Positions 6,001-62,893 of a stretch of DNA of 64,000 nt are shown in pieces (within the stretch, counting starts at the first letter, position 1; each line of letters opens with the position of its first letter). Both the position numbers and the translations under genes were made by a program. Source of the stretch: Ascidiella aspersa (lineage: Eukaryota); the NCBI GenBank assembly GCA_963924565.1, contig OZ004608.1, positions 28,396,001 to 28,460,000 on the forward strand, written 5' to 3'. Below the pieces are notes generated by a model. It was not told where the DNA came from, did no database searches, and saw only the letters and a program-made list of their open reading frames with translations.

Positions 6001-9000
6001 GCCCACGGAAACCACCAAGTGGTCGAGACCGCATACCAAAGGACCAAGGACTTCGACAAACTCTCCTTCCTCTATCTGCTCACCGGAAACCTTGAGAAGC
6101 TGAGAAAAATTATGAAAATCGGTGAGTTACTTTGACATGAAATGTGAGAACATCTTATTTTACAGTGACTAGAATCTAATTAGCGGTGATAAAAACATTT
6201 CCACCAGTGGTTTTCAAACTTCTATGGTCCCTGGTCCCTGGTCAGTTAAAGAGACTAAAACAACCCCAGGCTAATCAATGAATAAAAAATGTTGTTAAAA
6301 CGTTTCTGTCGGTCATTTTGTCTTCCATATAGCAAACAAGCAAAACAATAAAAATAAAAAATCTAAGGGCTAACTTTCGTAACGTTTCAACTTATTCTTA
6401 TATTTGCGCCCTTACATCACTCCTCTATTTAGCCGATTTATGCAAAAATACTTGAAAAAGTTCTTTGGATTTAATTTGTTGTAAAATTGTTTTCATTTAC
6501 ACTTATACGAACAATTCTCCCTTTTTTGCCAAGTTCTGCAAAGATACTGAGTTATTTTATTGTTTTGTCTTATTTGTTTTATTTACACCCTTAAACTATA
6601 GTTTTCCTCTCTTCAGCCAAGTTTCGTCATGCAAACAGCATTTTTGATTTTGTATCCTAAACAATTTTAATAACGCTTTAAACAAAGAATTTCGTTCTCG
6701 TTTGCAAACGTTATAACGTCAGTCATTATGTCTGCAATTTATGCGGAATGCGAAAACAAACCAGAAAAAAATTTAAGTGCGATATCAGCACCGATACCCT
6801 AGTATCGGACGAGTTCCGATACCACCACTTGGCATCGGGTATCGGCTGCAACATTTAATCCAACATCCCTAGTTACAAGTTACACATTAAATTTACGGCC
6901 TTATTCACTCGCTCCTCTTTTAGCCGAATTCCGCAAAGACACCTCGGGTCACTACCAGGCCGCTCTCTACCTCGGCGACGTCTCTGAGCGAGTCAAGGTG
7001 CTCAAGGGGTGCGGCCAGAAGTCCCTGGCTTACCTCACCGCCGCTACTCACGGCCTCACTGAGGAAGCAGAGAACTTGAAGGAGGAGGTTGCTCCTGAGG
7101 TTGATCCCAACGCGGTCCTCCTGCAACCTCCGCCGCCGATCCGACAGTGCGAGGAAAACTGGCCGCTGCTCACCATCAGCAAAGGTAGCTGGCAGTAAAT
7201 TTATTGATTGGGTAGGGATACTTTAAGTCTGTGATTCTAAAACTGTTTGCCTCGATAGATTCACAAGAATGCTACGAAGCTTATTTGTAATTTTGCAATA
7301 AAATTATTTGAATTACAAATAGGCATCCAGATAGCGTGATAATTCAATGGTACACTATTTATAGATAACTGATAATATTATGGTATTTACCTCTATTTCT
7401 TTGACGTGTATGAAGCAATAAAATCCGTTAACATTATACTGTATGAAAGTTTTAGGCTCTACAAAATATTGTGAAAAAAGTGCTTTCGAGTCGTTCTTAG
7501 TAGCACGATCACTGCTCTACTGGTGAACATTGAAAGCAAAGTTTGAATGACCAAGTCGCGTAAAGCAATGTGGTTTATTTGAACTCTTTCTCGCTTTCCC
7601 TTATTTATCGCCCACAGGATTTGGCAGCAACGGTCAAATCTAGTTTTTATTAAACACTCTCAAACTGTATATTTGTTTAACTATAAAAAAAATTAATAAA
7701 TAATTTGTAAAAGACTGAAATGAAACAAACTAACTAAAGTTTTTTTTTTTGGAAAACATTATTTAAAAAAACAACAACTAATATTTCTGTCATGTTTAAC
7801 GAGTTATAAAGTTACTGATTTGATGTAACTTTAAGTTTAGAGGAATGCTTTAAATAACATTGTTTTAAAATTAAACTGCCTCTATATCAGCACTGATCTT
7901 ATGTATATCTACCAAGCGAGTTAATTCTTTCCCGCGCTCAACCACACAACTTCTCCATTGTTCACCAATCACCAGACAGCTCCTATTAAATTCCACAATT
8001 TTTCATCCACTTCTTCTTTGCCACCTCCCAGGCTTCTTCCAGGAGTCGCGGATGGCCAAGGGAGCAAGCGGAGGACTCGGCGCCGACGTGGACCTGGACG
8101 CGGACACCGGTGGCTGGGGAGACGAGGTGGAGCTCATCATCGACGACGAGGGAGCCATCGTCGAGGAGGACTTTGAGGACGCGCAAGAGGGTGACGCAGA
8201 AGAGGGGGGAGGTTGGGATGTGGACGACGACGACCTTGAGCTGCCTCCAGACCTCGACATCGGACCGAGCGATGGAGCTCAGGGTGAAGGCTTCTTCGTG
8301 GCTCCAACCAAAGGTAGGTATTTTTTGGGAGTTTCCCATTATTCAAAAAAAAAGAAATCCAAAAAGGCGAAGGTCCCGAATTTTCAACTTAGAGAATTCC
8401 GCGTTTCTGACGTTAATGATGTCATAAAATAGTGACGGGTATGACGTATTTCCTCAATATTCATTTTGCAACCAGCTGATAATTGATAATCCTTGTTTCT
8501 AGCTATATATTTACGAAAAGGGATTCTTTCTGTACAAGCGTTGCTAGTATATATTACTCTGCCCAGTCTAGTAATTGTGTAAAATATAGGATGTGTAGAA
8601 AGGGTGAAGTTTATAAGAAGAATTGCTATTGGGTATTCGCTCGGCAACATTGCTTAATCTGATGTAACCTTACAAAACCACCAAGCGTTCAATCGAGTTT
8701 TAGTGATAGATCTATGTTAGGCACTCAATTTTTAACAGTTCGTTCAACCTGGATATGAGTCCAACCAGAGTACACTCTTGTAGTCAAGTGTCGGTATATT
8801 ACTATTACTCTCTCCACTCAGTAGCTTATCATGGACGAGTGTCAAACATAAACCAGTTTAGTATATACCATGACTTTTACCGCTTTAACAGGGACGTCTC
8901 AGTCTCAAGTTTGGTGCAACAACTCTCAGCTTCCAGTTGATCATGTACTGGCCGGATCATTCGACACCGCATTCCGAGTAAGTAAACGTGGCCTCATTGG

Positions 9001-15731: not shown

Positions 15732-18700
15732 ATGGCGGAGCAACCAGAAAAGAAGAAACTAGAGAGCTACAGGTTCTGGGACAAGGTTTTAGGAAAACCT
15801 AAACTGATTGTTGCACCGATGGTCGATGCAAGTGAACTTGCTTGGCGAATGCTGTCACGAAAATACGGCGCCGAACTTTGCTACACCCCAATGTTGCACT
15901 CTGCTGTGTTTTGTAAAGATCCACAATACAGGTGACACATCCGACGTGTAAGATAATGTTAGTTTCGTTTGTAAACATGATATTTTGGTTTAATTAAGTA
16001 ATTTTTATCATACTTTGAGATACCAGTCTGAAAAATATGCTATACCTCAACGAGAAAACTCGGTTTATTAAAATTTGGGTGACTGAGTGCAACAAGGGTG
16101 AAAAATGAATTTACTTGTGTAATATATGAAAAGTCTTGATTACTGTTGAAAATATGAAGAGTGTACCCATAATTTTTTTTCAACAAAGCCAACCCGCACC
16201 CCAAAAAATCAAATATGTATCCGATTTTCTATGTGTTACGATATAGAAATATTACTTTGACTTTTGGTGCACCCGTCACATTGATTTTTTTGACTGTGCA
16301 CCCGCAAGATCTCATAAAGATGTGCAATACCTTCCAGCTGGAGTATGCACAACTGATAATTTTGGACCGATGCAAACTGTAGTGCCACATTGAAGCATTA
16401 AAAAGTTATATATTTAATTTTGCTAATTTCAGCTGTATAAACAACTTCTGTAGCTTAGAGTAGTTTTATCATTATTACATCAACTTTAAAAACCTTAATA
16501 TTGACACAATATTTTGGTTTATTAGAAAGGATGGCTTGGCCTCTTGTGATGCAGATCGCCCACTGATTGTCCAGTTTTGTGGCAACAACCCGGAGTACAT
16601 TCTTAAAGCTTCACTTTTGGCTCAAGACTTTTGTGATGCAGTCGATCTGAACCTCGGCTGCCCTCAGGTTTATTAAGATTAATTAATACTGAATATTTAG
16701 AAAAATTAATAATGTTTACTGCATAATAATTTACTGATTGATGTTTCATTACATATAAAAAAAAATCTAGCGTTGGTTTAGAATCCTACCTTTATTTTAG
16801 GTACAGAGTAACCAGTAGCCAAAACTGAAAACTGGGAGTATAAATATAATATTACTTGACCCACCTGAACCCTAATGCTAACCGACAACCTAGCCCAAAT
16901 AATATCCGTTGATTTGTTTATTATGTAAATGTATGGTAGGATTGTAGACCAGCGCCAAAAATCTTTATAATTTGTTCCCTATGTTAAACCATAAAATTGT
17001 TTCAGGCAATTGCCAAGAAGGGAAACTATGGAGCATACCTGGGAGAAAACTGGGAGCTTGTGAAAAAGATTGTAAAGGCTTGTCATGAACACTTATCTAT
17101 CCCAATTACATGTAAAATTCGTGTCTTTAATGACATCGAGAAAACTGTGACTTATGCGAAAATGCTGGAAAGGTTAGTTTAAACTTCAAGTAACTTTGAT
17201 ATGGAGTTATTAAAAATGAGGCTGCAAAAAAACACACTACTTCTAAAACTGTTGCAGTTTGCGTTTGGGGGTTAATTACAAGTTACATCTGTACCAAATG
17301 TTTCTATTAGTATTAAAATGTTGCTTTATTGCTGCCAATTTTAATATACAACTTATTTCTGTGGCATTTTTAAATTCATTCAAACGATCACTGTTCCATT
17401 CAGCGCTGGCTGCCAGCTACTCACAGTCCATGGACGCACAAAGGAAATGAAAGGACCCAAGACTGGAATTGCAAGTTGGAAGCATATTAAAGCTGTAAAA
17501 GAGGCTGTCAGTATTCCTGTGTTTGCAAACGGAAACATACAATACAAAGAAGATGTAGAAAGGTATTTTACCGTTTTACTTTTATAGTAATGCCACAGCA
17601 ATGTATACATCTACCTTAAATTTTCTATTGTTTTCACAAAAGTGTTAAAAAAATCATTTTATTGTTTGCTGTCATGTTTAATATAAAAATTTTTTGGCTA
17701 CCAAGATTGTTCGTTTATTTCTCATCAGGCAGTTTATTTTACATTTTGCTGGTTTATCAACATTACATGTATAAGATAATAACTCATTTTTATTTTAAAA
17801 AAGTGTGAAAACTTTATCTTTTTTTAAAAAGAAATATTTGTGTTGCTTTTAAGTGTTGCATGTTGTTTATTTGTTGTAGCCGCGACACACGGTTTGCATC
17901 TTGTTGTGCCTGTGTTGCATGTAAGGTCACTCAATTAAACTCGCGCTGCTGAGAATTTGTTATTCATGTTTGCCTACAAGAGCGTCAAATCTTTATAACT
18001 TGACAATTAATATAAATCATTTCAGGAAAACTTCTTTTTTTTACTTCTCGTTTTGTTTTATTGCTTGCCTTGTTTTAATTTTAAATTTCGCTGGTTAATC
18101 GACATTACGTGTACAAGATGATGAATAAGTTTTTTCAAAGAACATAAACACTTAATTTTTTTTAAAGAATCAATTTTTGTTTGAAGAGCATTAACGCTAA
18201 TACGTAGACAATTGTTGGTATTCATTTCAGGAAAACTGCATTTTTTGCTTGCTCCCACTCATTTTTCTTTCATTTTGCGTTGCAGGTGTCTAAGCGAAAC
18301 CGGTGTGGACGGAGTAATGACCGCCGAGGGCAATCTCTACAACCCGGCAATCTTCACAGGTGCCAGGCCCGTGTCCTGGGAGATTTCGCGCGAGTACCTG
18401 GACCTGGCCGAAGCCCACCCCTGTCCGGCCTCCTACGCACGCGGCCACGTGTTCAAGATGTGTCACCACGCCCTCCAGCGGCACACCGAGGCCCGCGACG
18501 CGATGGCGACGTCCAAGACGCTGGGCGACATGCGACGCGCCATGGATCTCCTACGCGACGTTTGTGTCACGACATGTCAGGGCCGCGATCAGGACGAGAA
18601 TCTGCCGTTTCCTCACTGGTTTTGCCAGCCTTATGTCCGCCCGGCTCCTAAACCCGATCCGCCACGTAACAAAACCGCGCCGGCCGAGGTGCAACCTGGC

Positions 18701-19003
18701 GAGGCGGTTTCCAAACGGCGTCTTAAGAAACTAGTCAAGCGCTGTCGCGACGTGTGCGACATGAGCGAACTGAACTCCTTGGAGCCAAACGAAAAAGCCA
18801 CCAGGCTGGCGGAGGCCTTGGCCAAGAAACAGGCCAACCGGCCCGTGTACGAAAAGTGCGTGGCGTGCGGCAATCCGAGCGGCACGCGCTGCGTTTTTCT
18901 CTCGTGCCGACGCTGCTGTAAGGCAAGGGCGCTTGAACTGCGGCGCTTCTGCCAGGCGCACAGACACTTTACACCGAAGGAGGCCGTCGCCAACAAGGGT
19001 TGA
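15732..19003 (+). CDS. DUS1L: tRNA-dihydrouridine synthase 1-like (~461 aa)
   Basis: Exons 15732-15931, 16526-16667, 17006-17172, 17404-17562, 18286-19003 (1386 nt, in frame). Motifs [29 protein letters not shown] (catalytic Cys), [30 protein letters not shown], and C-terminal Cys-rich CVACGN...CRRCCK...CQAH. AATAAA at 19207. Confidence 0.95.
16769..16955. mobile_element. Small foldback/MITE in DUS1L intron 2
   Basis: Imperfect terminal inverted repeat AGCGTTGGTTTAGAATCCTACC / GGTAGGATTGTAGACCAGCGC; the internal TTGACCCACC...CCCAAATAAT segment resembles the interior of the 37136-37620 element. Confidence 0.5.
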
Positions 19004-31992: not shown

Positions 31993-34900
31993 TCAGTGTT
32001 CGTGAGTGTACGACATCGGCAGCCCACTGCGTCCCTCTTTGGCGACATCTACCGGCGTTTCACCCAGCTTTTGTTCGAGCCCTTGCCATGAACGCTCGGC
32101 GTAGAACTGAGCTGCAGTTTGAAATGTACAGGAGATATTAGATAAGCATATGAAAATAATAGGAAATAATGCAGTAGCAAGAATGTGTGCTGTTCTTGTT
32201 TGACTTCACCACTGCATATGAGTGCATTATTGACGACAGATTTTAGCATCGACAGAAACCAAAACTTAATAATATTCCGAAAGTTTATTAACAAGTATTG
32301 AGAGTAGGGATATTCGATAATATTGGATATGCCCGATGCCAAGCGGTCAGTATTTATCCGATACCAGGGAGTAGAGTGATATGTGTGCCGATCCCAAAAC
32401 AAATCTCAACATTTCGGCCATGGTTTTCGATCTAATTCCACTTTGAAAGTTCATTAGAAACTACCAGATTAAAGGTAACTAATTAAGTTTTGCTTAAGAA
32501 CCGTCAATTTGAACCGATTTGCTTAGTGATCATAGTAATAACGTCATTCGGAATCAGTACTTTGTCATTACTTTTTGTATAACGCGTCAAGCATTGATTT
32601 TGGAATGAAATACATATCAGAGTTTGGGAGATCTAATTTACAGTCGTTAAAAATAAGAAAAAATAGTTCCTTGATAATCCAAGTAAGAGTCATTGTTTTG
32701 TATTGAAGAAACAATAGCCTATCCAAAAGACAGTTGGCTGTTTTTTCGTTCGGTGAAGTTAAATCAAGTTATAAAATTAGTCTTTTCAAATGTACGTATA
32801 AAACACGTTTGCTTTACTCTTACCAGAAGAAAACGGATGAAAGACACTTAAGGCTTGTTGCTTTATAGTGTCGATTTGTTTATCGGCATCAGATGGATTC
32901 AACAAATTGGAAGCACCTTCAAGAACTTTACCAGAAATTAGGGAAACCGTCGCCTCATCCTGGGGGCTGAACTCCACAAAATGCTTTCCACCTAGACAGA
33001 AAAAGTTTGGCATTAAAACAAATTGCTGCAACACAATGAACAAAAAATCGATTCAGTAACATTCGGTTAAATTTCAGCAATACGAGCATATAAAGCATAA
33101 AAAATTGGAAAAATAATTAACTCAAGGGCTGAAAAGTTGAAACACGTGTTGGGAGGTTAAATTTATATTTGCAAGACATAGATTTAACGTAAGTTTAAAC
33201 CTAACCCTATTTCACTCAGCCATTTTAGTAAAAACGCGTTTTTCTAGGATAACTCTGGTCAATTGGAGGTGTAATAACGCCATTTTGCTGTCCATGGCAG
33301 CACTGGCTGCGTCAATAGGTAAAACGCCCTGGTTGGACCCGCGTGACAATTTGATGTGGCCCGCATCAGAATTTTATCGTATAAAATGTGGCATCGAAAG
33401 TTAAAACAGCCAAATTTTTATGTACAATTATTCCCTTGATATCACTTTGTGTATTTATGCGCTATGTTAGTTAAGCGATTAAATATATTGTAACGTGAAT
33501 TTTTTTTTAATGCCACCCATTTAAAAACTGGCCATTTTTGCAACAGCCTCTTGGTAGTCTATACTTCCAGAATCCAGTGAAGTACATTTTGCCAGGCAAG
33601 TGTATATGTATTTTAGAAATTTTTCTTATTTTCTATTGGAAATATTTTTTAGGCCCGCCTGTATGTGCAATGTATCCAGCAGTACTGAACAGGTTCCATA
33701 TTTTTGGAATATTTAAGGTACGCCTTCTCTGACATAAAAAATGTTAAACGAGTTAACGCACCTGGCAATAGATCGGTAAAATCGGTAACGTAGGCTTCCC
33801 CCCACTCCCTGTTTGCGTTGCAGGCCACTTCCACCTCGTACGGAGTCGCTATCGGCTTGTAGTAGTCACTGGAATCGACCAGCGCTTCCTCGGGACAAGC
33901 GACCAACACGAAAACGTCAATCTGGTAAAAATTGGAATATTGAATTACAAAGCCATAAAGGTCGAGTAGGTCGACATCATCTTGATTATTGTACACATTA
34001 TAAAAAAATGATAAAAGCAAAAATGAATAAAAAAACATCTTAATAATCAAGATGATGTCGATCTGCTCGACCTTTTTTGGCTTTGCAATTCATTATCAAG
34101 CTACATTACACATCCGTGTATAGTGTACCCAAATTGGAATAACATTTGGAGGAATAACAATGCAATGAACGTTTTGTTTACTGTTCAATACATTTGGCAC
34201 CGCCGCGATTGAAGTTTCAAGTTCAAGTTTTTTTAGTTTTTCTCCCCATCCACGATCAATACAATGCACGCAAGCAAACTAGAAAAGTGCATAACGTCAC
34301 TGAATTAGGGGAAGGAGCAGTCTTAAACCAAAAGCGGTTATACAAAGAGACTGACCCTACTAATTTAGCAATAATTTAGAGAATGGATTTGCAAAGAAAA
34401 AAAAATGCGAGGAAATAATCATATAAACACAATTACGACATTTGCAAGGAAGCAATTATATAAAAATACACAATTACGCACATAGTGATGAAGTTCGAAA
34501 CGGGACACGGCTCTTCACAGGTATAATGCTTTTGCGGAACGTAGAGAGTCTTGCTTACTACTCGCAGTCAAACACAGAAAACTGTCGTACCTCTGGGAAG
34601 TTGGCCAGCTTCTGCGGGTTCAGCTTGCCCACAACAAACGTGTAGCTTTTCTTTCCGGAGCGCTTCAGAATGTCCTTCAGGTGCTTGATGATCTCCCTGA
34701 ACCTGGCCATGCCCATGGTGCCCACGAGGATGCCGACCGTGTTTGCGTCTTTCACTCTTTCGCTCACGTAGTAGCGCTTCATCAGCATTCTTGGCATGAC
34801 ACAAGAGAAAGAAGTTTTTTGATTTTTCTGGCAAACTGTACTACCGCTTAGGCTAGAATAATTTGCACCTCTGCAAACCAGCACTGCGTCAAAAATATTC

Positions 34901-37900
34901 GTACAGATTATAGATGATTGGAAAACTGGTTTCTCAAAAGTTTTTTTTCGGGGGGGAGCATGATTTTTTTAAATGACCTTAAGTTGCATCATCATGTGAC
35001 GCCATAAAACAATAATCATAAGAAAGCTGCTATTCTCGTTGTGCGCAAGCTTGTGAAGCTGAATTTGAGTTTGAAGAGAAGGTGGCATAATGCGATGCAC
35101 AATAAATGCCGCAGTTTTATTTAAAATAGCAAATCGTGTTTACAATTTGTTTGAGTAATCGTAATTTGCCTTTACGGACAGTTACGTTAAAACGGGCAAA
35201 ACTATAATTTGGGGGACAGACCTGAACCCACCCCTGATATAAAGAGTACGCTTTATGTTGGATTGAACTAAAACAATCACGCTTGTTCTTACATTATGTG
35301 CGTTGTTAAATGTTATAGTGAACATTTTCCTAAAAGAAGGTGAGAAGAGTTACAGCTCCATCGTTAAATTTGAAAATTTTGCTTAGCTGGCAGAAACCGG
35401 CGCCGGGCCGTATTTTGCACAAGGCTCCTTTAGACACTTTACAAGGGATACTAAAATTAAAGAAGGTTAAAAACCACTCGTCTGTTTAAACCAGGACTGC
35501 AGATTCGGTTAATAATAAGCTGAGTCCGTCTCGGCCGAACGAGTGCGACTAATGCTTGAGTCCCGGCTCCAACTCCGTATTGAATCTATTTTTGTAACCA
35601 AAAGGAGGTGGATATACAATATACAGCTATCCAATTATAAGGGTGCTAACATTACCCAGCGGTAAAAGAATATTTAACTATATGCTATTCCATCTTAACG
35701 ATTACAGTTTGCAGCTTTCTAGTTTTCGCACTTGCTACATGTGCATGCCGGACTGGGGATACGAGTAGTTTTATGTAGTCCACTCGAGTCCTGAGTCTGA
35801 CAGAAAAAACAACTCCATTGAGTCCCTAATCCAACTCAGACTCCGCAGCAATGGTTTAAACATTTAAAGTATCTGTAAATTGTCATATACGCCATAATCA
35901 ATTTATTTTGAAGATAAATAAATAACCTCACAAGAACTGTGTAAAACCAGTTTTTAGAAATGTTTTATAGCAAAGGGTGCTTTTATCTAGTTGCAATTTT
36001 CACACTTGCATATTTGTCTTATGATGCCACACAAGTCTACAAATATCCTGAACAACTGAGATTTACTTGTTGATAGTAGATTTCAGTTGTGAAGTGTGAT
36101 TCGAAGAAGGGTCATAAACACATCCCTGCAAGGCTGGGTGTTTCAACTGAAAGTTCCTCAACATTTCACTATTTTCTTGGCCAATGAAGAAAACTGAGTA
36201 ATCATCAAGTTTGGTGTCTTCATGCAGTTTAACATAGAAAGATTCAAACTGGTATTCCTACGAAATGGAGTAAAAAAACAGAATTGGATCTTAACAGCTT
36301 TAGACAATACACTGAAACAACTGGAGTCAACATTAAAGTTAACATTTGCAACAAACTCTTTTGAAGAGTTAGCAAATAAAGCAGCTTGATAAAAAAACAC
36401 TAACGCATTTTTCTGGTTATTTTGGCCTTAATTCAGTGGTTTCAAACTTGTTTATTCTGTTGCCCAAATTTTGTTTATAACACATTTGCGGTCATAAACC
36501 TTTCTTGCACAACCTTTAGCTCATTTTCCAAATAAAAAGCATCGCCCTGATTAATATATAAAGCGAAATTAATTCTAACAAAAACTGAATAATCCTTTAC
36601 CTCCCGATCAGTTTTACATGGAATTGAATATCTTTATCAACAGACTGCTGGGCCCTGGAGCACAGTTAGGGAACAACTGCCTTAATTGAAGGTAACTAGT
36701 AAAATGTAAATACTCCCAAGTAAGGTATTAAAGTAATTTGTATATTTATTATTGGGGTTGATTAGCTGGACTTCCATTCGCTTACCAAAGGATCAGAGGA
36801 CAAAACTTCCTTTCGTTCTGGCAGCTTTTCAGTTCGACAAGAGCAATCTGGACAAGAGTTGGTGCAAAAGTCCTCATCTTGCTTTGTGGCATTCTCCACA
36901 GAATCAGTGGCAACACCAGGAAGGCGAATTCTTGCCATTGTAACATTAACGTAATCGGAAGCAAGTTTTTCATAGAAAGAATCTGAACAAAGCCAGTATT
37001 ATATGTTATTTATATATATATTTCATGTTCTAAACATTCATATAGTTGGTCAAAGGGTTACAGTAGACATTTTAGATAATGTTTGCATAATTATATTAAC
37101 GGCTGAAGTATGACATCAGGCTACATGCTGATTATCACCCAATCCGTTAGAAATTAGTGGATTTCTAAGCAAAAAGGTCTACGACAATTAGTCCATCCAA
37201 TGGATCAAAAAGTCTGACTTTTAGACTTTGAGGTCTCAGGCAATGCACCAATTTGACTTAACAATGTGCTTCAAAAGATTAAGTTTAATAATGTTTGACC
37301 TACCTAAATCCAAACGCTAACCAGCACCCGAACCCAAATAATGTGCGTTGAATTAATATTTACATAAACGCTTTAGGCTCCAATGCCTCAATTTGTGACG
37401 TAACAATCCTATGGTACCATAGACGAGAAACTATCTTATGCCCACCCAAGTTTGTGCTTTTTTCCCAGGGTTCATATAATTATTAAATTTACGCACATTA
37501 TTTGGGTTAGGGTGGGTCAAGTGTTATTAATGCCATTTCACACTTTTTGTAATTTTTTGTGAATGTAATTGTCGTAGACCTTTTTGCTTAGAAATGCACT
37601 AATTTCTAACGGATCGGGTGTGATTATTGTATCTATATATGCATCAAAAATTATTTTGCTTGATATATATATGGATATATATAATAAACATAGATTGTTG
37701 CAACATAGAATATATTTTGATTTTGTTTATATCAGTGGTCCTTCAAGAGGTATTGTGTTTTTTATTATTATTTATATAAAGAATTTGTGATAGTTATTGT
37801 AAGGGCCTAAAAAATGATTTTATTTATTTATAAGTTTATAACACTAGAATTTTTTATAAGTACAATAACATGTTTCAATATATACCAAAATAATTATAAA

Positions 37901-38973
37901 AATGCTTGCATAAATATACCTAATATATGCACATAGGACACTTGAGCTAAAATGCAAATCTTCTCATTGACGTCTTTAAAAGATTGCCTGAAAGAGTTGT
38001 ACATGTTGTCCAAGTTAAGGTGCCTCCCACCGAACACATAAAGTGTTGGTATCTTAGCATTGGCTGTGACAGCTGCTTTACCATAGTGAATAATGAGGTC
38101 AGCTTGGATGTGCTGTGCTGCAACTTCGTCCACATCATAACTAAAAGTTTAAAATATTTTTTATAATTTAAGCTAATGGCCACACCTTCACATACATCTT
38201 TTTTGGGATAATATCACATAATGTTTAAATTGAAGCAAAATAGAAAAACATTGGGATGGTTAATAACTGTTTACATAAAGCTTACTGTTACCTACATCTA
38301 TTTTAAGGATTATGTTGTTGCAAAACATACAAAAACTAATGAATAGTTTTAAGCATAAAAAATATACATAAAAGTTTAACTTTGTAATTATGTTTTTTGT
38401 GGGTTGTCCCACCATTTAAAAATAGATTGGGAATGCAAACATAATTCAAAGTCATGCTATGTTATATCCTTTTGAGAACATAACAGTAACAACAACCTTC
38501 CATATGAAGTGTCCGCAAGCAAATAGACATTTGCAGATGTTCTTTTTTGCATCTCAAGTGTCACCTGAGCTGCATCAGGTAACATGTAATCTGGAAACTG
38601 CAGCGCCACGCTGGTACAAAGATTCTCCTAAAAAATTAAAGAAAAGTAACAGAAGTGCTGTGGTGAAAATATTTCAACTCAAAAAGTACACTATATTTCT
38701 ATTCAGTATTTAATATAGATTCTTGAGTTTCAGGAAATATAATTTTTAAATTTACCCCCATTTTTACCAAATAAAACCATATTTACTGTAGTTAGAAACA
38801 AAAACATACATAGTAGTTAAAACCAAAAACATTACTTTGATATAATGGGCACATCTTTCAATCTCATATATAGTGTTTAAGTCAGAAGTTGTTGTTGTCT
38901 TGGAAATCAATTCTTCTGTATTGGAAACGCGAGACAACACTTCCAAATCGCTGGAGCTAAAACCAGATGACAT
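31993..38973 (-). CDS. DPH2: 2-(3-amino-3-carboxypropyl)histidine synthase subunit 2 (diphthamide biosynthesis protein 2), ~507 aa
   Basis: Exons (-): 38973-38836, 38627-38497, 38140-37920, 36982-36786, 36257-36067, 34789-34591, 33921-33762, 32991-32824, 32111-31993 (1524 nt, in frame). Motifs [91 protein letters not shown]...GRSG match eukaryotic Dph2. Confidence 0.95.
33941..34092. repeat. ~50-bp-arm inverted repeat (hairpin) in DPH2 intron 6
   Basis: 33941-33990 (…AAGGTCGAGTAGGTCGACATCATCTTGATTATT) pairs with 34042-34092 (AATAATCAAGATGATGTCGATCTGCTCGACCTT…). Confidence 0.85.
35492..35853. mobile_element. hAT-type MITE in DPH2 intron 5
   Basis: Perfect 8-bp TSD GTTTAAAC; degenerate TIRs (CAGGACTGCAGATTC / GACTCCGCAGCAATG); GAGTC/GACTC subterminal repeats. 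Confidence 0.7.
36434..36679. mobile_element. hAT MITE in DPH2 intron 4
   Basis: CAGTGGTTTCAAAC ... GTTAGGGAACAACTG with perfect TSD CCTTAATT. Confidence 0.75.
37136..37620. mobile_element. Foldback element with ~55-bp near-perfect TIRs and 7-bp TSD in DPH2 intron 3
   Basis: CACCCAATCCGTTAGAAATTAGTGGATTTCTAAGCAAAAAGGTCTACGACAATTA and its reverse complement ending at 37620; flanked by TGATTAT on both sides; an additional inner inverted pair is present. Confidence 0.85.
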
Positions 38974-47907: not shown

Positions 47908-50111
47908 ATGACGACATCGCGGCATCTTTGGATGATAAGCGTCGCTTTGGTACTCTCAGTAACTTTCCAAATGAGCGGTAAGTAACTTAAACGTTGTAAG
48001 TAAAGCGTATAATTGTATTGTCCGCGAATTTGTTTTTTGTTTGAAAGTTAACTATATCGAAAATTAATTTGTTCATTCTACGTTACATACTACACTATTC
48101 CTTTTAGCTAAAATGCGTTAAGTCTTAAATTTACAGTTTTGCGTATTACTTCAAACCGCCAAACAAACCTTGCGGTAATTAATTGCAATATTATTTCCAT
48201 AAACATGAAAAACAAAATTATTTGAAGAATGAAATAAAGAGCTTATTTTGTTGGTTTGATGCAAAAGTTTTTTTTCTAAACTCAGACTTGATGGACTGTT
48301 AATAAGATGTTACCTTTTTATATTGTTGCGGGCGTTTTTCATTTCCTTCATTGATTTCGGCATGCATTGTATGCAATAGCGTTCGGTGTCATTCGCCCTG
48401 AATAAGGCAAATTGTGTGTATGTTGTCGAAACGTTGGAGAACAAAAAATACCAGTGGGGACACTTTGATTATAAAGATGCCTTGTAGCAACAGTTTATAG
48501 AATATTACAATACCAACACTGGCAAAATGAAACGTTTTTGCCACTTTGCCTAAATTTTAACTCTTTGTTTATTTTACAATAGATGCCGAACACGGCGGAC
48601 AACAATCACCGACGCCAAGCAGGCCTGTCCCAACTGGAATGATGGAAAGAATGACAACAACCGATTACGTTGCAATGTCGGGCGATAGGACAACAGCAAC
48701 ACATCATATGAGCGGCGATACGACAACATCAGTACACATGACGTACCCTACACACCCAACTACTCATACCGGTCCACAGCCAAACTACACAAGCCCAACA
48801 CCAACTCAACCAGGTCCATCACCAACAGGACCTAGCCCCAGTCCAACTGGTCCAGCACCTACTGATGAGCCAGGTACTAGATTTGCTAAAATATTCTTAG
48901 AGTTTTTATACCAAATATAACACCATTCTTTATTTCAAATCAAAATTTTATTTAAAATCAACCAAAAAATTGTCTAATTACAAATCCCCTTTTTTCGTAC
49001 GTGCACAGGTGGCATGCAGACGTACGCGTGTCAGATGGCAGCTTATCGGGAAGCTATGCAAGAGTACTTCAAGGTGGTGAGGATGTATTCCAAAATTAAC
49101 GGTGGATGCGGATGTGGAATGGGTGGACATGGAGACGGCATTGGTGGAAATGGTGGAGGATACGGTGGAAATGATGGCGGAATGGGCGGAAACAATGGTG
49201 GAATGGGTGGAAATAATGGTGGAATGGGTGGTTGCGGATGTGGAATGGGTGGGCACGGTGGCGGAATGGGTGGAAACGGTGGTGGCATGGGTGGAAACGG
49301 TGGCGGAATGGGTGGAAACGGTGGTGGAATGGGTGGAAACGGTGGCGGAATGGGTGGAAATGGAGGCGGAATGGGTGGAAATGGTGGTGGAATGGGTGGA
49401 AACGGTGGCATGGGTGGACACGGTTGCGGACAGGGTGGACACGGCGGTGGAATGGGTGGAAACGGTGGCATGGGTGGAAATGGTGGCGGTATGGGTGGAT
49501 ACGGTGGCGGAAACGGTGGAAATGGTGGAGGAAACGGTGGGTGTGGCTGCGGACAACATGGTGGTGGCATGGGTGGAAATGGTGGTGGAATGGGCGGAAA
49601 TGGTGGTGGCATGGGTGGAAATGGTGGTGGAATGGGTGGAAATGGTGGTGGCATGGGTGGAAATGGCGGAGGAATGGGTGGAAATGGTGGCGGAAACGGT
49701 GGAAATGGTGCTGGCAACGGTGGTGGACATGGAGGCGGAATGGGGGGAAACGGCGGCGGAATGGGTGGACACGGAGGCGGAATGGGTGGAAATGGTGGAG
49801 GAATGGGTGGACATGGTGGCGGTATGGGTGGAAATGGTGGCGGTATGGGTGGATACGGTGGCGGAAACGGTGGAAATGGTGGCGGAAACGGTGGGTGTGG
49901 CTGCGGACGTCATGGTGGTGGCATGGGTGGAAATGGTGGTGGCATGGGTGGAAATGGTGGTGGAATGGGTGGAAATGGTGGTGGCATGGGTGGAAATGGT
50001 GGTGGAATGGGTGGAAATGGTGGTGGCATGGGTGGAAATGGCGGAGGAATGGGTGGAAATGGTGGCGGAAACGGTGGAAATGATGCTGGCATGGGTGGAT
50101 TTTGGTGGTAA
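47908..50111 (+). CDS. Secreted Gly/Met/Asn-rich repeat protein (~487 aa), probable extracellular structural protein
   Basis: Exons 47908-47977 (signal peptide MTTSRHLWMISVALVLSVTFQMS, GTAAGT donor), 48583-48873 (Thr/Pro-rich), 49009-50111 (short helical segment, then GGGMGGN heptads with GCGCG motifs, ending GGFWW*). All phase 1; 1464 nt in frame. Confidence 0.85.
49100..50105 (+). repeat. Coding 21-nt tandem repeat (GGN GGN ATG GGT GGA AAY GGN) with ~354-nt higher-order duplication
   Basis: Variation falls mostly at third codon positions of the Gly frame; GTGTGGCTGCGGAC recurs at 49541 and 49895. Confidence 0.95.
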
Positions 50112-51467
50112 ATGCAACGACACAGTGAAGACGGGTAGCCTTAAAACATTTTTGCAATTAAAAAACAGCTTTAACGATGTATATATGGAATAGAGCACAA
50201 CCTATCGCGCTTATGTTTTTGACAACTTTATATGCATAACTTCATATTGTGATTTGTTATCCCAATATATATTGCTTGTATGAAAATGTGTTCCGAACAA
50301 ACTCCTAAAAATTACAAAATAATTTTTCAAGGATTAAATGGCACACCTTTTATTAAATATTTCATGTACAAATCATTTAAGTTGTTGCTTGAAGTGTAGT
50401 TGGTATTTTAAAAGTGGGCGATTTTAGCCCGTTTTATGACAACCTTAGAAAGGCTTGAATAAAGCACAATATACCAAGAGAGCAACTTAAAATTGCCGCT
50501 TATCGCAATAAATAAAACAGTAATAATGTGTTATGGGTTTTTCAACTGTATGCCGTGACACACCTACTCAGTGTATGTTACCCGTGTGCCGCGGTATTTA
50601 ATGGTGAATTGAAAAATAACCTAAAATTATTATTATTGAGAAATAACCCAAAATTACCTAAAATTAAAAACAAATATAGCATGAAGCCAGAATTGCAAGA
50701 TATCATAGTACATCAACTAGTATAAATAAATTATATTGTAGTATTGCGGTATTGGCCTGCCGTGTTTGTGTTAATAGTTAGGTAATTATTAATGGTTCTG
50801 AAAAAAAGTATGCATGGATTTAATTTAACATTTTTAGAGTCATATTTTACAAAAAATGCTTGAAAACCACTAATGTTTAGTTAAACATAAAATGCCATAT
50901 AAACACGTAAAGAACTTATAAAGACAATGGAAAACAACAGATTTGAGTACATATAATGTCGCATTGATTAACATATACTCATAGTAGGCTAATCTCTGTT
51001 GTGTATATTTGAACTTACGAATAAATAAAAACAGGACTTTGTTAATTACAAGTCTTCAAACAATAAAACACACTTTTAATATTGTACTGTTCCATTATCC
51101 TCGTAACTTTCACAAATACCCTAAGATGATAACAGCCTTAAACTTTCTCAAACCATATGCACCAATATAAGTGTCCGACTGTCCGTGAGTGCACTGAAAA
51201 TTTTACAACATTTTTGTTTTAAATGTAGCTTTAAGCACTTTTTAAACAATGTTGAACTCACTATTAGCTGGTTTACAATTTGCAGACGTAGTTTTGCAAA
51301 ATTTTGTTCAAAGCAGTGTTGAACTATTAAAGGATCCGTATCTTTAAATTACTTGACTACACTGCAGAGCCTATTAAAACTCCCCAGCAAAATCTATTGA
51401 ACTCAAAGGCGTAAAGGTAAACATTTTTTACTGAAAGGCCTCTTTTTCACAATTAGGCGACTTCAAG

Positions 51468-59750: not shown

Positions 59751-61175
59751 CTATTTTAGGCTTTGATGATTTCCCTGGATAGACTTGTTCAAAAGCGCTT
59801 GCCGCTCAGTCGAAATATCCTCAATTTTTTTTAATTTTTCCTCAGCATCCAATCGCTTGTTGTTTGGCCGAAGAAAACAAGACAAAACAAGCATGAGTAG
59901 AAAGCAGGTGGTTTGGAAAAGAAAAATTCCCGTCACCGAGGTCGTTTCGAAAAACAGCCTTCCCAGCTCTGAAGTCACGAGAGATTCAAGAAAATTAATA
60001 CCTGAAAATAAACTCGCGACGAAGGCCTCTTTCATTGGATAAGTAACCTGGGTAACTGCTTCCAAGACCGGAATCTGAATTATTCGAACCGAAAATCCAA
60101 TTATAAAGTTGCAAGCATAAATACAAGCAATGCTGTCCAAGTAATAACCAAGCAAGACGATTAAAGTAAACAAGATCAAAGCCAAGGCTCCTACTCTTAT
60201 TTGAAGCACAGGTCGGTGGAATTTGTTTACTAACCAGCCACTAAACGCAGCTCCGGGTAAGCCCCCAACAGCTAAAACTACCACTCCCCAACTGCCTATG
60301 ACGTCAGGATTTGCGTCGCTGCCGCTTTTGGCAAACATCTTACGAAATATTTGCGACATCATAAGGTACTGAGCCGGGTTGCTGTGGTCTGCTAGACCTC
60401 CAATGGTTGTAACAAGCAAAAAGCGCCAATTTGAAAATAGGGCCTTTAGCTCGCCCCAGTAACTGACAGATTCAATCGAACCTTTGTCAATTTCGTCTTC
60501 ATTTTGTCGGAGCTGAACCAAGGTCGGTGGGGTCGGCGGTCGATCAGTTAAGTAAAATATCATGAGAAGGAGAATAGCGAAAAGTAGAACAAGCGGTGTG
60601 CCGTAAATAATATAGGCGTATTTTCTATCGACGACCAGCCATTGGCCATCTGCTCGCCTGCTGTGATTTCCTGCATACGGCTGCTCCATGACTTGACTAG
60701 GCACGATGCATCCTGATATTACACCAATCGATCTGCCAAAAAATATCAGGGCGTATGCTGTTCCGAGTTCCTTGCTCGCAAACCAATAAACTGCAAACGC
60801 CGGTATTAACGAGAATGAAAGAGAGTTTCTAACACCCTGTATAAACTGCCCCAAGACTAGTAGAGGGAACAAGGTTCTACGAGAAAACGCTGCGAGCATG
60901 AAAGTATATGAAGTGATAAGCAGAGATGTACAGGCTATAATTAGGGCCCGTATTTTGACAAGACCAACGTACACCAACCACGCGACAAGCAAGGTAACTG
61001 CAACACTGCTCAGTCGATTTCCTATCGAAACCCAGTCCACTGCAACATACGACACTTTAAAATAATCCACATAGATGTTGCTGACTTGCGTTGAAAGCGT
61101 GTTGACATACGTTATCATAAAGTCCATTGTAGCAAGAGCTACAAGAAAAAGCCATCTACGTTTGTAAAGCTTCAT
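59751..61175 (-). CDS. Intronless FLVCR/SLC49-like major facilitator superfamily transporter (~474 aa from first ATG)
   Basis: Single long ORF with about 12 hydrophobic segments; family-typical KLYKRRW, VDWVS, GQ, WF..KE..TA, PPTPPT, E.TYP motifs. The ORF is open upstream to 61232 (TTG), but the first ATG is at 61175, matching the ATG position of the paralog. Confidence 0.88.
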   Translation of the reverse strand: MKLYKRRWLFLVALATMDFMITYVNTLSTQVSNIYVDYFKVSYVAVDWVSIGNRLSSVAVTLLVAWLVYVGLVKIRALIIACTSLLITSYTFMLAAFSRRTLFPLLVLGQFIQGVRNSLSFSLIPAFAVYWFASKELGTAYALIFFGRSIGVISGCIVPSQVMEQPYAGNHSRRADGQWLVVDRKYAYIIYGTPLVLLFAILLLMIFYLTDRPPTPPTLVQLRQNEDEIDKGSIESVSYWGELKALFSNWRFLLVTTIGGLADHSNPAQYLMMSQIFRKMFAKSGSDANPDVIGSWGVVVLAVGGLPGAAFSGWLVNKFHRPVLQIRVGALALILFTLIVLLGYYLDSIACIYACNFIIGFSVRIIQIPVLEAVTQVTYPMKEAFVASLFSGINFLESLVTSELGRLFFETTSVTGIFLFQTTCFLLMLVLSCFLRPNNKRLDAEEKLKKIEDISTERQALLNKSIQGNHQSLK

Positions 61176-62893
61176 AGAATCAACAAATTGCAATCTTGTA
61201 GAATTGACTTGCAGATTTCTCGCTTTGTGCAAACTTTCTTTTGATCTATTATGCTCTACAGTTTTTTTGTTTGTTTTTCTTCCAGGGCGCTAGTAAGAAT
61301 ATAAACAACACGGCGATTGACTAATAAACACTAGCAAAGACATAACATCCTTATATAATGTGTAGCATAAAGGCTCCATCAACCTTTTTTCTTGGCGCCA
61401 ACCTTTATTGTTTACAAAATGTTGCCATATCCAGAACAAACAACGAAGGCATATTGAATAAATATAGGTGATTTAAATAGGTGGGTTATAGCTGTTTAAT
61501 TTATAGTATCTGAATTACATTTGGTATTTTTAGATTTTCATAATCAGTGCTCTGCAACCGGTATGTTGCGAGACCATGCTAGGAGTGCAGTGGTGTAACC
61601 GGTACTTTGTTTTGCGTGTTTTTCGGAATATACTGTCCAAACGTCTGTGTGAATATTTATAGATACGTAAAACTAGTAATTTTGGCCGTCTGCAATCAAA
61701 CTTTTCAAACAGTGTTACGTTTAATTGCTAAAATATTCTGTTAGTCAAAAACAAACTCAACTTTCGACCAAACGGTAGCCTACAACAAATGCTAAAAATT
61801 GTTCACCTTTAATCAAAAGCGAAAGGCTGAAACATTATACCTACGCTCAATACCTGTTTAATATATTCTTGATTGGTGTTCGGGAATACAATTTAAACAT
61901 AAATTTACAAACAGTGTTTTTACGTTCAATTTATAAATGTCATTTAAAATCCATCGTGGGATTAGCCGAGGCAAGCCCTAGACTTTGAGTGGCCAAAATA
62001 TTTTTAGAATGACTAAATAAAACTTAAACAAATACACAAGGCGTCAAAACCTTGGGCACACTAAATCATAAAGGTTTTATGCAATGAGGCAACGATTATA
62101 TTCGGCAAAATATATATATTCAGTTCAAAATAAAGATATACAGAGTTGCTGTTGGGGTCAGACTTAGTAAAAGGTCGAAATGAAGGATTCAAATTTAATC
62201 GTTTTATACGTTGACGACTTTTCACAATTCAAAGAAAATATTGAATTCTGTGATGTAGCGTAAATAATTTTAATTCTAATTCTAAATATTGAGAAATTTT
62301 TAACATGACCAACTACATTGCATGAATTATATTTTCATTTGAGAGGCTGTCGTTAATGTTTTTTATTTGACGTCCTTATGTAAACCGCAATATTTTTAAA
62401 TTGTATTTTATATTAAAAACAATCGATATACTCCGCAGCATCGTCTACAATTTGTTTTGCAATGCTTTTTTAGAAAGTTTAGTTCAGTGACCTGAACAGA
62501 TAACAAAACAATTCGAATACTGTACAAATCGAAATGACTAAAACTAGGTCTTGACTTGTACAAATGACAACCTAAGGTAGCAGTACGGTACTTGAAGTGT
62601 TGTTTTATCACAACGACTTGACGACGATAAATGCCTATAGTCATTGAACAATCCAAATCGCTAAAGTGTTAGAGCTAGAATACACATTTAGACAATCTTC
62701 ATAATATCGGTAGGGAACATTACAAGCTACTGAGTCTCTTCCATGTTGATTATTGGAATGTGCGAAGCAATTGAAATAAATTGACCCTAATTAAGCACAT
62801 AAAGTGTCAAAAATAACTGAAAGTTCAGGAAATAACTGAACTTCCGTCTCTGAGATGAGTTGTGATAAATTGGCTGAATGCTTTTTAGGTGTC

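Follow-up and report, generated by a model that had tools for sequence, protein, structure and literature searches.

For yeast Dph2, residues C106, C107, C128 and C362 are proposed as cluster ligands; in the account of these cysteines given in PMC11048331 conservation of the tandem pair is reported for five eukaryotes, removal of both of its cysteines leaves the protein nearly inactive, single cysteine mutants retain some activity, and the domain-2 ligand of the archaeal protein of P. horikoshii is C163. Yeast is held to require the DPH2 cluster in vivo, and activity is lowered by the human variant C341Y (PMC10538292, passages on DPH2). The cluster of Dph1 is described as catalytic and that of Dph2 is concluded to reduce it (bioRxiv 2024.09.16.613322, citing Dong 2019, in the part dealing with the two clusters); Dph3 is named as an iron donor too (PMC8251694, statement on Dph3). 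Yeast was not complemented by the Arabidopsis pair (bioRxiv 2024.09.16.613322). What the DPH2 cluster does is at present described in loose terms only, either as regulation or as reduction of the DPH1 cluster. Among other four-cysteine sites, CX8CX2CXC of anamorsin binds a [2Fe-2S] cluster (PMC8251831, description of this motif). In the openly accessible literature searched, DPH2, diphthamide and ascidians were found together in no paper, evidence of diphthamide in Ciona was not found, and titles and abstract openings on DPH2 phylogeny, loss and cysteine residues contained no variant of the kind reported here. Judged from the sequences compared below, the ascidian-wide DPH2 variant is real and, as far as these searches show, undescribed.

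The window, i.e. the whole stretch of DNA analysed, comprises 64,000 nucleotides of Ascidiella aspersa (contig OZ004608.1, positions 28,396,001 to 28,460,000 of the forward strand). Nine exons with GT-AG ends on its minus strand were joined to a 507-aa open frame of DPH2; window coordinates, all minus strand: exon 1, 38836-38973 (ATG at 38973; N-terminus in agreement with Phallusia P0001); exon 2, 38497-38627 (PF01866 positions 1-32; donor position as in L017); exon 3, 37920-38140, with two former ligand sites, that of the tandem Cys (Y91, 38139-38137; D92, 38136-38134) and that of HxGxxC (HYGKAA, 38088-38071); exon 4, 36786-36982 (helix end, strand and the variable loop carrying the motif); exon 5, 36067-36257 (opening with the segment aligned to the archaeal domain-2 ligand loop); exon 6, 34591-34789 (PF01866 positions 193-257, E 1.5e-19); exon 7, 33762-33921 (ACPE with the sole remaining ancestral cysteine, C368, at 33897-33895); exon 8, 32824-32991; exon 9, coding part and stop, 31993-32111. 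Five of six scanned exons matched Pfam PF01866 (Diphthamide_syn), and the motif-bearing exon 4 gave no Pfam match at E ≤ 1. Support for the splice junctions comes from Phallusia DPH2, matched at full length (62% identity over 502 columns), and from L017, in which the exon boundaries are identical. Exon 3 gave no match in a homologue search, and exon 4 gave none that could be used in the atlas. In RNA run X3 the exon-containing bins were covered (exon 4 bin, depth 5.97), several purely intronic bins had depth 0, and the orientation was that expected for a minus-strand transcript. A pseudogene was ruled out by the open frame and by pN of about 0.1 against pS of about 0.7. The DPH2 of the window is an intact, selected and expressed gene.

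Several features were recorded in the introns and beside the gene. Intron 3 contains a MITE-like element (37136-37620; 55-base terminal inverted repeats, 96% complementary), the summed contig depth of which was very high in runs X1 and X2; intron 6 contains a short high-copy hairpin repeat (33957-34075; 34-base arms, 94% complementary); in intron 5 (34956-35163) 208 bases are exchanged for 16 others in a run X2 contig, an insertion/deletion difference. Neighbouring frames are: 7875-8432, plus strand, with a coatomer alpha C-terminal match; 18185-19003, plus strand, with a dihydrouridine synthase match; 59751-61289, minus strand, 512 uninterrupted codons with an MFS_1 transporter domain. At 48978-50201 all six frames are open in G-rich sequence (GC skew 0.37 in the bin 48001-50000) and the one frame scanned had no Pfam match; this segment is probably a tandem repeat.

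The nearest named proteins, among the matches listed, were DPH2 of Phallusia mammillata, Clavelina lepadiformis, Ciona intestinalis and Styela clava. Orthology was assigned to DPH2, not DPH1, from the named best matches (DPH2 or subunit 2) and the lack of the domain-2 GC ligand motif, the trees having contained no DPH1 sequence. FastTree trees computed without the ligand and loop columns placed the named ascidians and the window protein in one clade with P0036, P0186, P0004, P0172 and L017, these five being assigned to it by tree position alone (support 0.987 with 203 sequences, 0.997 with 38). The window gene is an ordinary ascidian DPH2 orthologue, its species probably lying close to Phallusia. 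Phallusia DPH2 is about 40% identical to the amphioxus and shark proteins.

An earlier note on this DNA had claimed that the ligands of the SCC and HxGxAC motifs were lost, and the translation bears this out: residues 90-92, spanning the exon 2/3 junction, are SYD in place of the ancestral SCC; residues 108-113 are HYGKAA in place of HxGxxC; three of the four ancestral cysteines are gone and C368 of ACPE is kept. Across the clade, the second tandem position is Asp in 8/8 sequences, the HxGxxC cysteine is replaced by Ala or Ser in 8/8, and the first tandem position is a bulky Tyr or Phe in seven of eight members, with Cys in Styela only. The ACPE cysteine is kept in eight of the nine members covering the site, Styela only having Asn. 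Every member with all three sites covered keeps exactly one cleft cysteine, mostly that of ACPE, in Styela the first of the tandem pair. Since the double loss of the tandem cysteines leaves the yeast protein nearly inactive, the intact and selected ascidian DPH2 needs another solution. The ancestral cleft cluster site was, at the level of sequence, lost from DPH2 before the main ascidian groups diverged; the split of Stolidobranchs from the other groups is put at about 390 Mya (PMC5899321, dating of this split).

Translation of 36866-36837 (minus strand, exon 4) gives a 10-residue C-x3-C-x2-C-x-C (C203, C207, C210, C212) in the variable domain-2 loop, as the earlier note had read it. For comparison an alignment of 296 sequences was assembled, the window model and 295 matches (34, the best 120 of 1340 and the best 150 of 3597), in which teleosts are over-represented owing to the selection by best match; 261 of the 296 span all three ligand sites (249 canonical and 12 others) and 35 were left out as incomplete; P0186, which lacks its C-terminus, and L017-L020, sequences of one species that are 99% alike, were added later. 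C-x3-C-x2-C-x1-2-C was present in seven of the eight ascidian-clade sequences that cover the loop (window DPH2, Phallusia, Ciona, Clavelina, Styela, P0186, L017); the eighth, P0036, has neither the ligands nor the motif, with 5 scattered loop cysteines. CX3CX2C occurred in the loop of 0/249 canonical DPH2s among the best matches taken and of 5/12 non-canonical ones, all ascidian. Hence the motif is retained in close relatives that lack the ancestral cysteines and is absent from the canonical orthologues, the two comparisons that the earlier note had named as decisive. The note had also proposed to test whether gain of the motif and loss of the ligands co-vary across species; as placed on the tree, ligand loss and motif are a single event on one branch, exceptions exist, and the co-variation thus has no statistical weight.

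The motif was then compared by codons between the window and L017. Nine of its ten codons differ and every change is silent; over a 14-codon block around it pS was 1.09 and pN 0, and over the next 14 codons pN was 0.72 and pS 0.68; for exons 3, 6 and 7 pN was 0.21, 0.10 and 0.11 and pS 0.64-0.79 (uncorrected proportions throughout; the 14-codon block was picked after its identity had been seen, the 10-codon motif was fixed beforehand). Among six proteins the first three motif cysteines are invariant and the other loop positions average 14% pairwise identity. The four-Cys pattern arose in 0.025% of 20,000 shuffles of the window's loop, and in the canonical loops it would be expected by chance 0.06 times per 249. 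From these codon and residue patterns, the motif is under purifying selection and constrained like the core, the gene not decaying.

The loop itself (window residues about 184-232) is an unusually Cys-rich segment, about six-fold richer than another variable linker in the 249 canonical orthologues. Cysteine makes up 405/7994 loop residues (5.1%) and 119/14950 residues of the C-terminal linker (0.8%), the N-terminus of the same proteins having 0.85%; with 121 representatives at 50% identity the values were 4.7% for the loop and 0.4% for the linker. Four or more cysteines were counted in 20/32 canonical loops of at least 50 residues and in 0/232 linkers of that length. Long canonical loops usually bear CC and CxxC clusters. 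Since the loop is already Cys-prone in canonical DPH2, the ascidian spacing looks like an older tendency that became fixed and not like a fresh acquisition; the same richness argues against the loop as an inert filler.

P0001 has an identical motif; its AlphaFold2 model is confident in the core (mean pLDDT 86) and uncertain in the loop (57-63). The model superimposes on archaeal Dph2 with Z 21-25 and rmsd 3.2-3.5 over 309-318 residues (residues 25-404, Z 25.2), the next fold having Z 8.2; PF01866 was the only Pfam family above the cut-off (E 2.6e-81). A search of a PDB copy yielded no eukaryotic Dph1-Dph2 chain. By profile alignment the end of the loop falls on the archaeal GQ(V/L)LGC segment, presumably the site of P. 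horikoshii C163, so that the loop can plausibly approach the cleft; the distance from the motif to the next core strand is variable, 45 to 130 residues. When the P0001 loop, its core and a 4Fe-4S cluster were put together in a complex prediction run without alignments, the score was 0.00, a value that counts neither way.

The preferred reading, to which a probability of about 0.4 is given, is that the four cysteines, fixed at constant spacing in a loop that, by alignment, would lead from a domain-2 strand towards the cleft, constitute a metal site in their own right. Its likeliest form is one Fe or an Fe-S cluster on a flexible stretch of chain, comparable to motif 1 of anamorsin, and it would continue the accessory function of the lost DPH2 cluster. 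Such a site may assume part or more of that job, handing electrons or iron received from Dph3 on to the catalytic DPH1 cluster, and may also steady the DPH1-DPH2 dimer; it would neither bind nor cleave SAM. The earlier note had likened the motif to the canonical radical-SAM motif. The CX3CX2C spacing of that superfamily is indeed found, and the form CX3CX2CXC is written for HemN-type proteins (PMC10320005, notation of the motif). In a radical-SAM motif an aromatic residue precedes the third cysteine; here this residue is D, D, E, E, G and D in six proteins and D in L017, so that the Asp remarked on in the earlier note is confirmed in the window and in L017, and an aromatic is lacking in 6/6. 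The partial TIM-barrel is absent around the motif, the whole protein having the Dph2 fold, a Pfam Radical_SAM match is missing, and eukaryotic Dph2 is described without a predicted SAM pocket (bioRxiv 2024.09.16.613322, structural prediction part). With the fourth cysteine added to the lacking aromatic and the Dph2 fold, a radical-SAM site was rejected, and acquisition of a canonical one that binds and cleaves SAM is extremely improbable; of the label only the spacing stands. A functionless, neutrally Cys-rich loop, the caveat attached to the earlier note, might be suspected from the four or more cysteines in 34/249 canonical loops and from the missing motif in P0036. It is largely refuted by the silent codon differences between the window and L017, next to freely evolving codons; retention of the spacing over about 390 My also speaks against it, and it is rated as very improbable.

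Two further readings deserve more weight. Ascidian DPH2 could be a scaffold without Fe-S cluster, DPH1 being served by Dph3 directly; the motif, its fixation having nothing to do with the loss, would then be a Zn knuckle of structural use or an element for docking. Motifs of four cysteines take up Zn no less readily than Fe. About five further lineages lack two or more ligand sites and the motif as well: P0195/P0201, P0249, P0271/P0273, P0171 and P0276 (among the best 150 of 3597 matches; P0171 and P0276 were outside the completeness filter and assessed by eye). P0271, P0273 and P0276 keep no ligand site, P0271 and P0276 have zero loop cysteines, and P0195, P0201 and P0249 have 5-6 each. These lineages sit at separate places of the tree, and their count of five is approximate owing to the weak support of deep FastTree nodes. 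They are possible cluster-less DPH2s as far as their sequences go, and ligand loss without the motif suggests that a replacement may not be needed. P0036 without the motif, the Tyr or Phe that could fill the cleft at the first tandem position, the residual activity of the yeast cysteine mutants (PMC11048331, mutant data) and CxxCxC-type loops in 4/249 canonical DPH2s point the same way. The scaffold does not account, however, for the fixation of this precise spacing in the ligand-less ascidian clade alone, and the other ligand-less sequences have no assigned function, some perhaps being gene-model errors; it is regarded as possible, though rather doubtful. A ligand swap, an idea already put forward in the earlier note, would keep a [4Fe-4S] cluster at the ancestral position, held by two to three loop cysteines, the remaining cleft cysteine and possibly Asp92. 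In its favour, the loop runs into the segment aligned with the archaeal domain-2 ligand, one cleft cysteine is kept per fully covered member, and the second tandem position is always Asp, a possible Fe-S cluster ligand. Against it, four loop cysteines are enough for a site of their own, the distance to the core strand is as variable as given above, residue 91 is bulky, and the archaeal Asp at this position points away from the cluster (PMC11048331, description of the archaeal site). Moreover, the remaining cleft cysteine of Styela differs from that of the other members; with all four loop cysteines present and that of ACPE absent, Styela makes the motif independent of the ACPE cysteine and speaks against a simple swap, which is considered unlikely. 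The self-contained site, for its part, leaves the retention of the ACPE cysteine in most of the clade unexplained. Taken across these three readings, metal binding by the motif would be very probable.

More speculatively, and on balance doubtfully, the accessory Fe-S site of DPH2 may be movable: the Cys-rich loop would be an old and so far overlooked metal-handling segment of eukaryotes generally, which in ascidians has wholly taken the place of the cleft cluster as a four-Cys Fe or Fe-S relay from Dph3 to the catalytic cluster in DPH1, and several further lineages would do without a cluster. A whole chordate clade, the model Ciona included, has dismantled the cluster site with the gene still under selection, which amounts to a natural experiment; through it, four point changes are enough to put the question of cluster function to the test. 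Should iron be bound by the loop, this would be a rare case of a cofactor site relocating within one fold.

Compared with known systems, the window DPH2 belongs to the same family (PF01866) as yeast and human DPH2 and has the same fold and conserved core; the third ligand (yeast C362, human C341) is kept as well. The ascidian proteins have lost the tandem cysteines (yeast C106/C107) and that of HxGxxC (yeast C128), for which conservation between yeast and humans is described, and add the fixed four-Cys motif in the domain-2 loop. Archaeal Dph2 (3LZD, 6BXN, 6Q2D) and DPH1 draw on this loop region for a cluster ligand, there one cysteine in GQ(V/L)LGC, whereas the ascidian loop has four cysteines some 20 or more residues upstream of the corresponding position and the domain-1 cysteine is gone. 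With the canonical radical-SAM CX3CX2C (HemN-type CX3CX2CXC) the cysteine spacing alone is common; the ascidian motif lacks the aromatic residue and the barrel and lies in a variable loop. The best functional analogy is motif 1 of anamorsin/Dre2, a cytosolic electron-donor protein, with four cysteines ending in CX2CXC; its first spacer is 8 and that of the ascidian motif 3, so that CX8CX2CXC itself is not reproduced and the likeness is one of cysteine pattern only.
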